This document shows positions 7,630 to 62,171 of a stretch of 64,000 bases of DNA, one piece after another. This DNA is from Candidatus Latescibacterota bacterium (GTDB taxonomy: Bacteria > Latescibacterota > CBDEFO01). The stretch covers positions 1,312,001 through 1,376,000 of the forward strand of contig OZ252149.1 in NCBI GenBank assembly GCA_965248755.1, written 5' to 3'. A program made the translations under genes and the position numbers. A model generated the notes under the pieces. The model saw nothing but the letters and a program-made list of their open reading frames with translations, searched no databases and had not been told where the DNA came from. Position 1 is the stretch's first letter; each line of letters begins with the position of its first letter.

Positions 7630-9471
7630 GTGAAGAGACACGCCCTCTTGTTCATATCCCTGCAGATCAGCAGGGCTGCCCTGTCTCCCCCCATTAAATC
7701 TATCGGGCGTTACTGTCTTCTGTCTGCTTTAATCGTGCTTGCAGGTTGCGCCAGTCCTGCCAAAAAACACTACCGAGCCGGAAGTGAATACCATTCCAGA
7801 GGTCTTTTGGACGAAGCCATATCCGAATACCGGCAGGCTCTCGACATACAGCCCGAATACGCCAGAGCGCAGTTCCATCTGGCAAATGCCTACTCAGATA
7901 AGGGTCTCCTGAACGAGGCTGTATCGGAGTATAAGAAGGTACTTAAGAGGTATCCCGGATATGCAGAAGCCCACTATAACCTCGGGCTGGTATATGCCTT
8001 AAAGGGCCTACTGGACGAAGCTATCAAAGAGTACGAAAGGGCGCTGTGGATATATCCGGATTTCGTGGAAGCTCACTACGGCCTTGGAGAGGTTTACAGA
8101 CAGAAGGGACAACTAGACCGAGCCGAAGCAGGATACAGAAGGGCACTGAGGCTCTACCCAGGTTTTGCTGAAGCTCACCACGGCCTTGGAGAGGTTTTTA
8201 GAAAGAAAGGATGGTCTGACCGTGCTATTTCAGAATACCAGACCGCCATCGGCATACGTCCCAGCTACGAAGAAGCGCACTATGGCCTTGCGTTAGTGTT
8301 CGCAGACAAGGGACTTCTGAAAGAATCCATCGCGAGATATCAAAGGGTGCTAGAGCTGGATCCCAATTTCGTCCAGGCTTACCTCCAACTTGGAAACGCC
8401 TACAAGAAAGAGGGACTCCTGGATCGGGCTACAGATAGCTATAGAAAAGCAATAGACCTTTATCCTGATTACGCTGAAGCCCACAGGGAATTAGCTGATG
8501 CCTACAGACGAAATGGGATGGCCAACGAGGCACTTGAAGAATATAGGATCTACCGGGAGAAAGAGCTCCTTTACAGAGCCAGACCGCACAACAGCTTGGC
8601 TCTTTCCTACGCCAACAACGGCCTTATGGATGAAGCTATAAAGGAATGGAAAGAAGCATTAGAAATATATCCCGGCTACGCCGAAGTCCATAACAACCTT
8701 GGAAACGCTTATCTGCAGAGGGGTACAATCGAGGAAGCTATAAGAGAATACAAAAACGCCATAAGGATCGAGCCGAGCCTCGCCTTAACGCACAGCAATC
8801 TCGGAAGCGCATACTCCCAGAAGGGGTTGTTGGACGAGGCAATAGTAGCATGGAAGGAAGCAGTAGAGATTGAACCTAACTACGCCGGAGCCCACTATAA
8901 CCTTGGAAACGCCTACTCCCAAAAGGGGATGATCAACGATGCTATAGAGGAATACAGAAAAACTGTGGAGATAGATCCAAAACAGGTGCTGGCACACAAC
9001 AACTTAGGGGTAAAATACTATTACAAGGCCCGATACGATGAGGCTATATCGGAATTCCAGAAAGCCCTATCTATTGACTCCAGCTATGTAAACGCCCAGT
9101 CTAACATAGGGGACATATATAAACACAGAGGAATGTACAACGTTGCCGTAGCTGAGTTTCAAAAAGCCCTGAAGATGAATCCCCACTACGGCTACGCTTA
9201 TGGCAGATTGGCCTCCATCTACTACATCCAGGGTCTATACGAACAGGCCCAGTCAGCCCTAGAGGAGGCAGAAAAGTTCCAGGACGATCCCTGGGCATCC
9301 TACAGCATCGGGTGCTACTACTCCCTCAAACGCGACCTACAGACGTCCCTTATGTGGATCAAACGGGCAATTGATCTTGGGCTTAAAGACTTCGAATGGA
9401 TGAAGCACGATAAGGACTTAGACTTCATAAGAGAGGAACCTGAATTTAAGGAGATGATCGCATCAGAGTAA
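7630..9471 (+). CDS. TPR-repeat lipoprotein
   Basis: LAGC lipobox; many 34-aa AHYNLG/AI.EY..AL...P repeats. Confidence 0.92.
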   Translation: MKRHALLFISLQISRAALSPPIKSIGRYCLLSALIVLAGCASPAKKHYRAGSEYHSRGLLDEAISEYRQALDIQPEYARAQFHLANAYSDKGLLNEAVSEYKKVLKRYPGYAEAHYNLGLVYALKGLLDEAIKEYERALWIYPDFVEAHYGLGEVYRQKGQLDRAEAGYRRALRLYPGFAEAHHGLGEVFRKKGWSDRAISEYQTAIGIRPSYEEAHYGLALVFADKGLLKESIARYQRVLELDPNFVQAYLQLGNAYKKEGLLDRATDSYRKAIDLYPDYAEAHRELADAYRRNGMANEALEEYRIYREKELLYRARPHNSLALSYANNGLMDEAIKEWKEALEIYPGYAEVHNNLGNAYLQRGTIEEAIREYKNAIRIEPSLALTHSNLGSAYSQKGLLDEAIVAWKEAVEIEPNYAGAHYNLGNAYSQKGMINDAIEEYRKTVEIDPKQVLAHNNLGVKYYYKARYDEAISEFQKALSIDSSYVNAQSNIGDIYKHRGMYNVAVAEFQKALKMNPHYGYAYGRLASIYYIQGLYEQAQSALEEAEKFQDDPWASYSIGCYYSLKRDLQTSLMWIKRAIDLGLKDFEWMKHDKDLDFIREEPEFKEMIASE

Positions 9472-23019: not shown

Positions 23020-23185
23020 GTTGAACCCGTGCGTGGTGTGTCAGACTGTCTGAGACGCAAGCGGGTACACAACAATTGCTGCCCTACGGACTTCATTATC
23101 GGCATTCTATTGTCGTGGGTCAGTCCCCGATTGAATCTATCGGGACCTGTCTGACACGCAGATTTGGGGAAACGGAAGGAGACGC

Positions 23186-25082: not shown

Positions 25083-25329
25083 TTAGCTAGGTAAACAGTA
25101 GTCAGTAGCCCCCCGATTGAAGCTAACTGGGATAAACGTGGCCCCAATATCTCCTTTCTAAGTCATCATTGCGAGCCAAGCGAAAGGTTTGCGAAGCAAC
25201 TTCATATAGACTGCCTTGTCTACTGTTTGCTACTTACTATTCTGGATCTCTATTGTCACCTCCAGACCATTTTGACCTGAAACTTAAGAAAGGACACAGA
25301 GGCTTGCTCTCCCTGGAGGCCGGTAAGGT

Positions 25330-26202: not shown

Positions 26203-26418
26203 ACAGCAAGAAGGTAGGGGAGGATGCCCTGCAAGAACGTAGGGAGGATGCCCTGTATTGACTACGAGATTAGCTTCCCCCCGACCCCCGATAGAGTCAA
26301 TCGGGGGTGCTCGCAACGACGGTTTAGAGGATTCGTAATGACGTTGCCGGGCTTCGGCTTCAGTCATTGCAAGGGGTGGAACCCCGAAGCAATCTCACCT
26401 TTCTACTGTCTACTATGT

Positions 26419-27140
26419 TCAGTCGTCTGAGCCGCCTCTGAGTATGAGCAGGCGGATAAGGTGGATGACAGCCACAGCTGCTGACGCCAGATAGGTCAGC
26501 GCCGCGGCATTTAGGACTTTCCTGGCGGACTTTATTTCGTCCTGAGCCAGATATCCCTCCCCTGTGAGGATCTTTATGGCTCTGCTGCTGGCGTTAAATT
26601 CGACGGGCAAAGTCACAAAGTGAAACGCGACAGCCAGGGTAAACAAGGCTATGCCAAGGTCTATCAGGGGTTCATATCCGAAGAAGAAGCCTCCTATGAA
26701 CAAGGGCCCCATGCTAATTTAGATCCGAAGCCTACTACGGGCACTAAGCTGGTTCCTCAAAGACAGTGGGGCGTAGCCTGCAGCCGTAGCCTGCAGCGTG
26801 CTGGAGCGCGTGTCCTGTCTCGTGTGCGGCGATACCTATGGGCGGACACAGACCTTGAGGAATAGACGCCCTCCGAAAGCCGCATAACTCTGTCGCGCGG
26901 ATCGTAATGATCCGTCAACTGGCCATCTATCACCTCCACTGCCACATTGTGAAGGCCGTTGTGATCCAAAAGCCTTCTGGCCACCTGTGCGCCGGTCAGT
27001 CCACTCCTTGCGTAAACCTCACTGTACCTGGAGTATGAACTCTTTATCTTAGCCTGAGCGTAGAGGGTGAGGATTATGGCAGGGATCAAAAGGATGAAGG
27101 TGGGGTCCCAAAATAAGGGGAAGAAGAATAGAGGATATAT
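26419..27140 (-). pseudogene. YugP-like zinc metallopeptidase, multiply frameshifted
   Basis: LTDHYDP, HETGH and TLPVEFNAS..AAALTY fall in different frames; 13-bp tandem duplication gctgcaggctacg. Confidence 0.85.
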
Positions 27141-27168
27141 GGATTTAACCCCCTGATTTTGAACTTCA

Positions 27169-28119
27169 CTATTCGAATTGTTCTTTTTGAGACAACCTGT
27201 AGCCGCGGACAAATTCAGAGGCGGTCATCTTCTTTTTACCGGCAGGTTGAACCTCCAAAAGCCGGAGAAAACCCTCTCCAGTGGCTACTACTATCCCATC
27301 CTTGGGATCAGATACTATAATCTCCCCCGGCTTACTTTTACATTCTCGCTCCTCACGAGCAGCCCTATGTATTTTAAGTTCCTTCTCCCTCCAGATCGTG
27401 AACGCTCCAGGGTACGGATTTGTTCCCCTTATAAGGTTCCTTATCGTCTCTGGGCCTTTATTCCAATCAATCCTGCCGTTTTCCTTCTTAATCTTAGGGG
27501 CTTTCGTCGCTCCCACTTTGTCCCCAATTGAGTCTATCGGGGATTGAGGGATACGTATAGCCATTCCTGACTCCAAGAGTTCTATAGTCTCCACGAGCAT
27601 ATCTGCGCCTTCGGCTTTCAGTCTGTCGTAAAGCTCTCCTGCTGTCTCGTCATTTCCTATTTCGACTTTCTCCTGTAGGATTATGTCCCCGGTGTCAACC
27701 TTTTCGTCTATTACGAATGTCGTAAGACCCGTCTCCTTTTCACCATTTATGATGGCCCAGTTTATGGGTGCCGCTCCTCTGTACTTGGGCAATAGAGACG
27801 CATGTAGGTTAAGCGAACACAATCGGGGTATCATCAGAACCGAAAGAGGCAGGATTCTAAAGGCTACGACTACAAAAAGATCGGGTCGAGCGTCGGAAAG
27901 GGCAGAGTGGAAATGGGAATCTTTGAGGCTTACAGGCTGCATTGTGGGGATATTGAGTCTCTGCGCTTCCACCTTAACCGGGGAAGGTGAAAGCTTCTGT
28001 CCTCTTCCTTTCGGAGTGTCTGGACGAGTCACAACACACACACAATCGTGCCTGCTCCCTGCAATCCTCCCAAGAGACGGAACGGCAAAATCGGGCGTCC
28101 CCATGAAGATCAATCTCAT
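27169..28119 (-). CDS. fmt: Methionyl-tRNA formyltransferase
   Basis: FMGTPDFAV, NLHASLLPKYRGAAPI. Confidence 0.98.
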   Translation of the reverse strand: MRLIFMGTPDFAVPSLGRIAGSRHDCVCVVTRPDTPKGRGQKLSPSPVKVEAQRLNIPTMQPVSLKDSHFHSALSDARPDLFVVVAFRILPLSVLMIPRLCSLNLHASLLPKYRGAAPINWAIINGEKETGLTTFVIDEKVDTGDIILQEKVEIGNDETAGELYDRLKAEGADMLVETIELLESGMAIRIPQSPIDSIGDKVGATKAPKIKKENGRIDWNKGPETIRNLIRGTNPYPGAFTIWREKELKIHRAAREERECKSKPGEIIVSDPKDGIVVATGEGFLRLLEVQPAGKKKMTASEFVRGYRLSQKEQFE

Positions 28120-28442: not shown

Positions 28443-28726
28443 GCGAACCTCCTGACTTTAATTATGGTTGGCACTGTCAACTGGATTTCGAAATCCGTCC
28501 CGCATCTGTCGGGCCAGTCCCCGATTGCTTCTATCGGGGACGCGTGTCTGCTCAGAAACTAAACTACGGACCGGGCTGCTCGGTCCCTGGGCTCTTTCTT
28601 AGGGTGCATGAGGTGGTGACATCAAAGCACGAAGTGCCCTTGCCCCTGCACTCGTAGAGGCGATCTTGCACCCTTTACCTTGTATGTCGTTAACTGCCTA
28701 CTAATTGGGGTGCTCCATCCAGAACT

Positions 28727-31433: not shown

Positions 31434-31648
31434 AATCCTTTTGATTATATAGGCGTCAAACTTCCCAATACTAATAATAAGGTCATATTCTCATTTTGTC
31501 AAGGTTTTACCTTCAAAGCTAAGTCCTTCTAAGAGTCTGTTATCTAAGCTTTTCAGAGTGAGTATAAGGTCTAAGAGTCCCTTTTCCCCTTGCTTATATT
31601 CGTAACGTCTGTTATCTTTTGTTATGCAAACACACAGGGGTTAGCTTA

Positions 31649-32041
31649 ATGGCAAGATTCGTCATACAAAAGCACAGCGCCAGGAATCTTCACTACGATT
31701 TCAGACTCGAAATGGACGGCGTTCTCAAATCCTTGGCTGTACCTAAGGAACCCACCGACAAGAAAGGCGTCAAGAGATTGGCGATAGAAGTGGAGGACCA
31801 CGATCTGGACTACATCGACTTTGAGGGAACCATCGAAGAGGGAGAGTACGGCGCAGGAAAAGTGGAGATATGGGACAAAGGGAGCTATGTGTTGAAGGAA
31901 AGGAGCCTGGAGTCCGTTTTGTTTGAGCTAAACGGCGGAAAGTTGAAAGGCTTGTTCAGGCTTATAAAGACGGACTGGTCACCGGGGAATAATTGGCTGC
32001 TTGTAAAGAGCGGACAAGACGCCGGGAAAGAAAAGGCTTGA
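31649..32041 (+). CDS. Stand-alone LigD 3'-phosphoesterase domain protein
   Basis: FVIQKH.A..LHYDFRLE, RLAIEVEDH, YGAGKVEIWDKG. Confidence 0.92.
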   Translation: MARFVIQKHSARNLHYDFRLEMDGVLKSLAVPKEPTDKKGVKRLAIEVEDHDLDYIDFEGTIEEGEYGAGKVEIWDKGSYVLKERSLESVLFELNGGKLKGLFRLIKTDWSPGNNWLLVKSGQDAGKEKA

Positions 32042-45571: not shown

Positions 45572-45878
45572 GGCGTTTCATCTCCTTTCGCAGTGGGAGT
45601 TCCACATCTAAGATGGCTTCAAGGATAGATAAATAGAGTAGACAGTAGGGGTGAGGTCTACTCGTCCAGTATTCAGTAGATCGGGCACTTCCCACTAGAT
45701 TTACTGGGGGTGAACCCCCGATAGCATGATTCGGGGGCAGGCCCCCTCGCAATGGCCTTTCCGTTTCGTCATTGCGAGCGAAGCGAAGCAATCTCGATTG
45801 TTGTCACCAAAGACCTGAGCAAGCTCGGGAAAAATGTTACTTATTTGTCCGAATCAAAAACAACCGGTCCCTTTTGGA

Positions 45879-53113: not shown

Positions 53114-53474
53114 CTTATTTCCTTTCTCTGTAGTTTATGAACGCTCTGTTGCTGGCAAGGTAGAGAGGCGATTAAAATATACTGATAGAACTATCCGATG
53201 TCAAGCTTCGAAGGGTCTGCAGCTTAAAATACAGAGTAGATAAGCAACCAAACCCAATCATTAAGCGTCTTATTCTGTAGACATCAAGTAAGCATTAAAG
53301 TATATTTGTGCGGGTTGTAAGAAGATGGATCCCCATTGCCCCCTGTACAAAAAAGGAGGATCAAGGCAATGTCATTGCGAGTTCCCGATTGAATCTATTA
53401 GGGGTCGGGGAAGCGAAGTAATCTCATTCAAAGATTCTAACCATAACCAGTGTCATCAAGGCGGGATACAAATT

Positions 53475-55923: not shown

Positions 55924-56132
55924 TTTGATACCTCCTTACGGTTAGGGATTTACCTTGAACACATCCGATGATCCTGATTCAGAGCCAACAAACCTGGTTT
56001 CCCTTGGCTTGCGAATTTGATTCTCTCCTCTCTGATCTAAATACCACTCCCCAGCAGCATATCGCTATTCCATCTGGAGGCCTTTAAATAGGTCTACCAC
56101 CGAGATCCCCCCCGATAGATTCAATCGGGGGT

Positions 56133-61499: not shown

Positions 61500-61565
61500 T
61501 ATGCGTTCTCCCTATTTAGAGCTTATTAGACGCCGATGTTTTTACTTCTTGATCCCCAATTGAAT

Positions 61566-62171
61566 CTATCGGGGATCAATCTCTAATGCCGCCTGAACTG
61601 CTTCGATTTCCTCATTCAGCGCGTGTACTCTTTCACCGGTCATCTGATCTAGCCGTATGAGAATCTTAAGAGCCAGTCGCGGCTCTTCAGCGATGAGCTC
61701 CATCAAAGTCGATCGGTGGAAGATGATAAGTTCACTGTTACCGGAGGCTACAGCACAGACCGGATTGGGATGCTCATCCAAAAGAGACAGTTCCCCGAAG
61801 AAATCCCCTTCCTCTAAATGAGCCACCTTGCCTCGATCGTTAAGTATATCAACGCTCCCCTTTTTGATGATATAAACACCGAGGCCGATCTCGCCCCGGT
61901 TGAAGATCGCCTCGCCTTCGGCAAAGTCTTCCTTCTGGACGACCTTGCTTATCTTCTTTATCGACCGCTGGCTCAAGTACCCGAATAGGACAGACTCTTT
62001 GAGGATGCAGATCAACTCATCATTAGATGATCTTTGACCTTTGAGTATCCTGTTTCTTATAAAGTTAAGTCGCATGGAATTTTTCGTTCTGTAGGGAATG
62101 CGAGGATTGCCTGGCCGCTCAATGGCTTGCTGCCTCTCCAGCAAAGGGCCCATGATGCCGCCCATTGACAA
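61566..62171 (-). CDS. Cyclic-nucleotide-binding domain protein (start uncertain)
   Basis: VYIIKKG, GDFFGELSLL. Confidence 0.85.
   Translation of the reverse strand: MSMGGIMGPLLERQQAIERPGNPRIPYRTKNSMRLNFIRNRILKGQRSSNDELICILKESVLFGYLSQRSIKKISKVVQKEDFAEGEAIFNRGEIGLGVYIIKKGSVDILNDRGKVAHLEEGDFFGELSLLDEHPNPVCAVASGNSELIIFHRSTLMELIAEEPRLALKILIRLDQMTGERVHALNEEIEAVQAALEIDPR

Follow-up and report, generated by a model that had tools for sequence, protein, structure and literature searches.

The window, i.e. the whole stretch of 64,000 nucleotides analysed here, belongs to the genome of a Candidatus Latescibacterota bacterium (G000) and contains the gene fmt for methionyl-tRNA formyltransferase, of which no second full-length copy was found in the genome. 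Within fmt lies a short palindrome that an earlier reading, made from the letters of the window (hereafter the sequence-only reading), had assigned to an intergenic hairpin family. The assignment holds: the family comprises 572 copies genome-wide and, at up to 3 mismatches, gives 12 strand-matches at 9 places in the 64-kb window, compared with 0 in 100 shuffles. The features discussed below are:

27169..28119, minus strand: fmt, methionyl-tRNA formyltransferase, an open frame of 316 aa with Pfam domains PF00551 and PF02911
27523..27543, minus strand: codons of the inserted peptide SPIDSIG (Fmt residues 193-199), in the inter-domain linker
27521..27543, no strand assigned: full 23-nt hairpin in fmt (T + 21-nt core + A), delimited by alignment and end co-variation
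28518..28540, no strand assigned: intergenic hairpin copy that replaces 3 bases (net +20); the orthologous site is empty in the congeneric genome G001, as it is in contigs from three other runs
26286..26306, minus strand: intergenic copy (core), common to G001, apparently nested in a degenerate copy
23125..23145, plus strand: intergenic copy (core), 1 mismatch
25111..25131, plus strand: intergenic copy (core), 3 mismatches, adjoining heptamer-like repeats
7688..7708, plus strand: copy (core), 3 mismatches, close to where an ORF may have its 5' end
45716..45736, minus strand: copy (core) of a CCTG-extended subfamily, 4 mismatches, empty in G001, net +28
53383..53403, plus strand: copy (core), 3 mismatches, adjoining a remnant of a GTCA-type REP
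56110..56130, minus strand: copy (core), perfect match to the consensus
61554..61574, plus strand: copy (core) from which a minus-strand gene call takes its TAG stop

The gene that follows fmt (26419-27212) runs through two frames and exhibits several small indels relative to G001; it is either a pseudogene or the product of an assembly error, and it encodes a putative zinc-peptidase-like membrane protein. Elsewhere in the window (31619-32041), a stand-alone gene for a LigD 3'-phosphoesterase domain (PF13298) has been identified; Ku and the LigD polymerase were not found in this genome, and a search of five genomes was negative for both (0/5).

The seven-residue insertion in Fmt

In the minus-strand translation, the context of the palindrome reads IPQ-SPIDSIG-DKVGATKAPK, and the claim that SPIDSIG represents seven extra residues is confirmed by the alignment with homologues, in which it appears as a clean insertion. 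Among 150 rows (the query, 29 genome loci and 120 database proteins, which are not independent of each other), the spacing between Q192 and K209 amounts to 9 residues in 141 rows and to 8 residues in 5, i.e. 146/150 rows have no insertion, and 16 residues were found in four rows: the query, its own locus, the congener G001, and protein P0001, which is 94% identical to the query and has the same linker as G001. The solved Fmt chains also lack about seven residues at this position, as seen in two alignments. The insert falls between the two Pfam domains, and in an AlphaFold2 model with a mean pLDDT of 92, values below 50 are confined to residues 195-201; in this model, made for Fmt as a single case, the insertion is predicted to form an inter-domain loop. 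We have also looked for the same residues in genomes devoid of the repeat, and found that the 29 genomes from the same phylum whose Fmt has no insertion are also without the repeat, with 0-3 strand-matches to the hairpin each. The refuting case named in the sequence-only reading, the same residues in homologues from repeat-free genomes, did not occur among them.

Between G000 and G001 the fmt insert differs by two synonymous bases. A G001-like allele, with its two synonymous changes, is also present in contigs assembled in two other studies, where fmt has no indel and an intact frame. The insertion cannot be put down to faulty assembly; it has a net gain of 21 nt and predates the split of the G000 and G001 species.

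The repeat unit

The repeat is an imperfect palindrome of 23 nt (Y + 21-nt core + R), with a stem of 8 bp that includes the Y-R pair, a conserved T/T opposition at core positions 8 and 14, and a variable base in the centre. Among 550 non-redundant copies, the outermost pairs T..A (249) and C..G (167) are far more common than C..A (33) and T..G (32); this co-variation indicates that the element is a 23-nt stem-loop, and the 21-nt unit of the sequence-only reading is to be corrected accordingly (27521-27543, T...A, in fmt, where the core, 27522-27542, has 2 mismatches to the consensus given in that reading). The T/T opposition is kept in 519/550 copies, and one stem pair has been changed from G:C to A:T, with the double change in 28 copies vs single changes in 13 and 12, counts that are inflated by related copies. 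One subfamily has a CCTG or CTTG extension, and a position matrix of the 572 copies reveals no fixed flank. The element is non-coding and non-autonomous.

Abundance and distribution

The 572 copies in the 4.54-Mb genome comprise 105, 188, 138, 99 and 42 at 0, 1, 2, 3 and 4 mismatches, respectively. In a survey of the phylum, the family was found to be abundant in 2/168 genomes (G000 and G001), and one other genome has a single copy; there are about 570 hairpin sites in one genus. A scan of species genomes for the exact core returned at least 80 loci; among those listed, 68 are titled Candidatus Latescibacterota, and the other 12, in each of which the outer bases are paired, belong to Deltaproteobacteria, Thermodesulfobacteriota and one Nanoarchaeia contig. 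Four deltaproteobacterial or thermodesulfobacterial genomes (hereafter Delta-type) exhibit 26-92 strand-matches each, and the Nanoarchaeia one a single site, while the exact free core had no match in viral contigs.

Other repeats are also abundant in G000, including a 169-nt dimer of the GTCA-type REP, heptamer tandem repeats, and 20-22-nt palindromes of unrelated sequence; genes for RAYT or Ssn were not found in this genome. A sister palindrome, whose core measures 17 nt and whose outer pair is mostly C..G, occurs in 40 copies (at up to 2 mismatches) and is polymorphic between G000 and G001.

Filled and empty sites

The sequence-only reading had proposed a very small mobile palindrome, and its mobility is evident from a comparison of G000 with 2.4 of the 4.6 Mb of G001, supplemented by 32 short loci. 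Among the G000 copies with an orthologous site in G001, 37/234 are empty in G001, and 49/253 of the G001 copies are empty in G000, a few on either side being diverged copies or poor alignments. Of these 86 sites taken as empty, 50 are anchored and non-redundant, and 37 of the 50 have a net difference of 18-30 nt: 19 nt in ten events, 27 in nine, 20 in six, 26 in three, 18, 21 and 24 in two each, and 22, 29 and 30 in one each. Since 2.4 of 4.6 Mb of G001 were compared, this spectrum is a sample; the footprint counts draw on two genomes, one of them (G001) covered to about half, and on crude gene calling. The empty alleles correspond to the uninterrupted state of REP-like repeats, of an IS3-like element, and of paralogous genes, which identifies the events as gains. 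The 23-nt mobile hairpin is real and has been active recently.

The hairpin is not inserted as a fixed cassette. It either replaces 2-5 target bases as a whole, mostly 4 or 3 and sometimes 2 or 5 (net +21 to +18), or is accompanied by about 4 further bases (net +26/+27), which form either a direct repeat of 3-4 nt or an extension (CCTG/CTTG). In fmt we infer the replacement of 2 target bases with a net gain of 21; the same footprint is directly visible in two other genes that have DNA paralogues, where the 23-mer replaces exactly 2 bases, and in comparisons with G001. Direct repeats of 4 nt flank 23/550 copies (3.3 in shuffles, with a maximum of 10), and a minority of copies exhibit a duplication-like footprint, some of which may go back to a CTTG/TTGA extension of the donor; 21 of the 46 3-nt repeats (TAG/CTA) probably reflect the periodicity of the heptamers. 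Some copies have spread passively, inside the IS3-like element (15 copies) and the 169-nt REP dimer. Targeting of hairpin loops is not supported by the 37 clean events: 11/37 empty sites lie in such loops vs about 26% of random positions, and the folding energy gives p=0.054.

Copies in genes and the frame filter

Gene calls covering 78% of the genome (made with a home-made, crude caller) contain 71/572 copies, and a strict in-gene test found 34/572 copies vs 276/600 random positions, i.e. a depletion in genes. The count of the motif by frame, suggested in the sequence-only reading, has shown that all 71 genic copies are read in four stop-free frames, as SPIDSIG, SPIESIG, PDRFNRG and PRLNLSG; 21 further copies provide a stop codon. 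Net gains are a multiple of three in 6/6 events in confident genes vs 10/31 elsewhere (Fisher p=0.003), which shows that the keeping of the frame results from selection and not from the design of the element. The commonest outcomes, net +19 and +20, would break reading frames, and only those with net 18, 21, 24 or 27 persist in genes. The proposal that a length divisible by three explains the tolerance of the palindrome is not supported, the unit being 23 nt and its footprint variable.

Tolerance in housekeeping genes as such is real: the frame of fmt is open, its copy is one of dozens that have survived in frame, and PheS, LpxD, SecA and SMC also carry copies. Residues added by genic copies number mostly 6, 7 or 9, and paralogue alignments show mostly +7 and +9. 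Compared with their relatives, PheS (a name read from motifs) has 6 additional residues in 14/16 rows and 5 in the other 2, LpxD has 13 to 15 in 16/16, SecA has about 7-8 in its variable C-terminal region, and SMC has a longer loop in the hinge region, which is also variable. This smc loop (locus L454) holds both the 23-nt family and the sister palindrome, and in G001 smc is split at the hinge loop, where there is a nested insertion; the split is either a real break or an assembly error. Within genic copies, 22 synonymous and 66 non-synonymous changes were counted, with 31% synonymous expected, so that selection on the encoded peptides is not supported (p=0.92). In the absence of a synonymous excess, the peptides look neutral, and they appear to be tolerated rather than selected.

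The search for a mover

An associated nuclease of the HUH/RAYT type, which the sequence-only reading suggested looking for, did not materialize: Y1/RAYT (PF01797) had 0 matches in G000, a genome that is 98% complete, and in G001. Y1 genes do exist in the four Delta-type genomes that carry the family, and among the 25 of 30 matching loci covered, none has a Y1 gene flanked by the hairpin and one holds a copy with 4 mismatches, far from the gene. DUF559 was not found in G000 either, and 5 DUF559 loci of other carriers are not flanked by the hairpin. A search of G000 for a small GIY-YIG/Ssn-like gene gave a sole match of 608 aa, the size of UvrC, and neither a motif scan nor tblastn revealed such a gene. 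The genes of G000 that have a hairpin copy on both sides were rejected as candidates, as they looked like ordinary host genes. There are two reverse transcriptase (RT) genes in G000, one retron-like and cut by an IS3-like element, the other of 507 aa (types read from sequence); neither has a flanking hairpin pair of its own, and the nearby copy rides in the IS. The retron-like RT (L231:1387-3273) has a YADD motif and is interrupted at its 3' end, and beside it is a 301-aa ORF, which we take to be similar to a retron effector.

A small SsnA-like GIY-YIG gene has been found in G001 (L234:1400-1790) between NTS-type repeats, adjoining a partial duplication of a putative sua5-like gene; it is absent from the orthologous site in G000 and hence looks like a mobile repeat-ssn-repeat unit, but the repeat on its flanks is not the 23-nt hairpin. 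In the Delta-type genomes, many hairpin matches are loop variants, which in one locus (L091) were seen with a GTCA tag. The putative tagged parent is a GTCA-tagged, CCA-tailed REP, whose stem is nearly identical to that of the T..A 23-mer and which occurs at no fewer than 122 metagenome loci (at least 122); at one among those listed (L363:240-840), an Ssn-like gene has a REP dimer on each side, and each dimer contains this tagged form. The tagged form also has 7 matches in viral contigs, whose ORF lists include no Ssn-like ORF, and a single GTCA-tagged match in G000. Within 8 nt of either foot of the 572 copies, GTAG occurs 43 times, TGTC 42, GTCA 18 and CGTC 10 times. The published degenerate SRM string matches 0/572 free copies and 0/128 tagged hairpins, but the NTS-like flanks of the ssn gene in G001 escape it as well.

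According to the accessible portions of one report (PMC11893778), Ssn enzymes cut ssDNA a few bases upstream of CGTC-tagged hairpins, ssn genes are flanked by their repeats in the manner of an IS, and cleavage by SsnA depends on bases upstream of the palindrome; there the enzymes are described as cutting, not inserting, DNA.

Possible mechanism of insertion

The explanation we favor, with a probability of about 60%, is that of a 23-nt hairpin with a variable footprint and a frame filter, derived from a tagged REP and moved in an Ssn-type manner. The unit, its mobility, the footprint and the filter are established by the observations above, and the derivation and the mover are what we propose. 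The 23-mer would be a tagless derivative of the stem-loop of the GTCA-tagged (CGTC-class) REP. A GIY-YIG ssDNA nuclease of the Ssn type, available in trans or at an earlier time, would release or recognize the hairpin in single-stranded form, after which polymerase and ligase of the host would seal it into a nick or a short gap. Loss or doubling of target bases would then depend on how far the cuts are offset; in genes only the in-frame outcomes survive. An Ssn-type nuclease as the mover is our best lead, though a tentative one that we would not yet bet on; it is suggested by the near-identical hairpin that forms the stem of the tagged REP flanking the Ssn gene in the one locus mentioned above. 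Against it stand the failure to find an Ssn-like gene in G000, the different repeat on the flanks of the G001 ssn gene, the single tagged match in G000, and the free copies, which have no upstream bases of the kind on which SsnA cleavage depends. A broader generalization is speculative and has perhaps one chance in four: by losing their tag, hairpins of Ssn-class REPs could give rise to a distinct class of mobile elements of 19-27 nt, consisting of a stem-loop only, able to cross phyla unchanged and inserted by a replace-or-duplicate process unlike those of DDE enzymes, HUH enzymes and site-specific recombinases, with Ssn as a part of the integration machinery. If true, such elements steadily write short loops into essential proteins, and Ssn is more than a cutter.

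Movement may alternatively need no dedicated enzyme, the hairpin being copied by template switching or microhomology-primed synthesis during repair of nicks, gaps and stalled forks. This has a real but clearly minor chance of being correct. It agrees with the lack of a candidate enzyme in the search of G000, with flanks that often resemble the element's own sequence (TTGA, TGAA, TCAA, TCTA), with variable footprints, and with the surroundings of the 550 copies, 82 of which look nested, 111 are within 40 nt of GTCA-type REP motifs, and 66 are beside heptamer repeats. However, the empty/filled pairs involve whole hairpins with paired ends and not random fragments (in a search confined to complete copies), the T/T opposition is conserved and a stem pair has undergone a compensatory change, and an identical 21-mer with paired ends recurs in unrelated phyla.

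Less probable is an RNA-templated process, in which an RT copies the transcribed hairpin at a nick, and the offset of the second cut leads to deletion or duplication. Target-primed insertion typically leaves deletion-or-duplication footprints, so the type of footprint fits, and G000 does hold two RT genes. Neither of them has its own flanking hairpin pair, however, there is no orientation bias of copies between co-directional genes (173 vs 162), and hybrid perfect palindromes are almost absent (5/550). The same count has led us to reject twin-strand writing from one template, which predicts such hybrids.

Movement of a REP/REPIN by a RAYT (HUH Y1) transposase is improbable, and for extant genes largely refuted. 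The imperfect hairpin with its conserved mismatch and the Y1 genes in four Delta-type carriers recall such a system, but PF01797 had no match in either G000 or G001, the Y1 loci of other carriers offer only the one distant copy, there is no fixed GTAG/CGTC tag, and HUH strand transfer is precise, while the footprints observed here are not. Finally, a fixed 21-nt frame-keeping cassette, as might be read from the net +21 in fmt and the +7 aa in several paralogue comparisons, or a binding or uptake motif selected by point mutation (DUS/HIP1-like), is ruled out for practical purposes by the filled/empty sites, which are clear indels and not substitutions, as well as by ends paired at 23 nt, net +21 in only 2/37 clean events, and the strong depletion in genes.

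Comparison with known systems

In the open full-text literature, no description of this hairpin family, its consensus or its peptides was found. How REPs, SDRs and RPEs multiply is a long-standing question. The family described here supplies information that tends to be lacking, namely dozens of before/after pairs between two close genomes, with footprints from 5 target bases lost to about 4 gained, and direct evidence that in-frame protein insertions are survivors of a frame filter; a candidate Ssn nuclease and a tagged parent hairpin are now available for tests in vitro. Non-coding DNA is shown here to be a source of surface loops in housekeeping enzymes (Fmt, PheS, LpxD), and the recurrent SPI(D/E)SIG, PDRFNRG and PRLNLSG peptides in proteins of the genus are accounted for.

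The hairpin does not behave as a MITE, as there is no target duplication of a fixed length (the 4-nt repeats are rare and target deletions are commoner), and abundant IS-like elements carry it internally and not as their ends. With GTAG REPs and REPINs it shares a short imperfect hairpin, a conserved mismatch, and hundreds of copies, as far as these are described in the accessible portions of the sources (PMC3116915, PMC3733652), but it has no GTAG tag, its footprint is imprecise, and RAYT was not found in G000 or G001. The likeness to Rickettsia palindromic elements (RPEs), only far shorter, that had been noted from the fmt copy extends to in-frame copies in unrelated conserved genes (Fmt, PheS, LpxD, SecA, SMC): both are palindromic repeats inserted in frame into unrelated housekeeping genes and giving rise to recurrent peptides, according to the available parts of PMC10969869 and PMC3733652. 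They are set apart, by description and not by the RPE consensus, in size and host (about 100-150 bp in the Rickettsia lineage vs 23 nt in other phyla). According to the same parts of these sources (PMC10969869, PMC3733652), nearly half of RPEs lie in ORFs, vs 6-12% of the 23-nt hairpins, which moreover use four frames and whose frame-keeping is seen as a filter acting on variable footprints.

The SDRs of Nostocaceae are, like the 23-nt hairpin, very small, mobile, and without a known enzyme. Those that Elhai et al. are said to have described in 2008 (Genome Res) reportedly measure 21-27 nt and are nested in one another as well as in heptamer repeats and miniature elements. As far as this description goes, and compared by description only, the hairpin has the same traits of a size within 21-27 nt, filled/empty polymorphism, and nesting in itself and in heptamers. 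Papers citing that work (PMC4390886, PMC5861425, PMC3116915) state, in the accessible portions, that SDR5 inserts precisely into HIP1, whereas the 23-nt hairpin has no fixed target and a variable, delete-or-duplicate footprint.

The CGTC-tagged REPs include, in the portions of PMC3733652 and PMC11893778 that could be consulted, CGTC-1 to -4, dRS3/NTS and RPE-4/-6, with Ssn-related motifs; intragenic REPs and stop codons provided by REPs are described there too, and the relation of untagged to tagged hairpins is listed as open (PMC3733652). The stem-loop of the GTCA-tagged, CCA-tailed REP of L363 is nearly the same as the 23-nt hairpin, while in the free hairpin the tag (CGTC/TGTC-A) and the CCA-type tail are gone and the copies are mostly single, not dimers. 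In this reduced form, the hairpin is among the smallest mobile DNAs seen adding loops to proteins.
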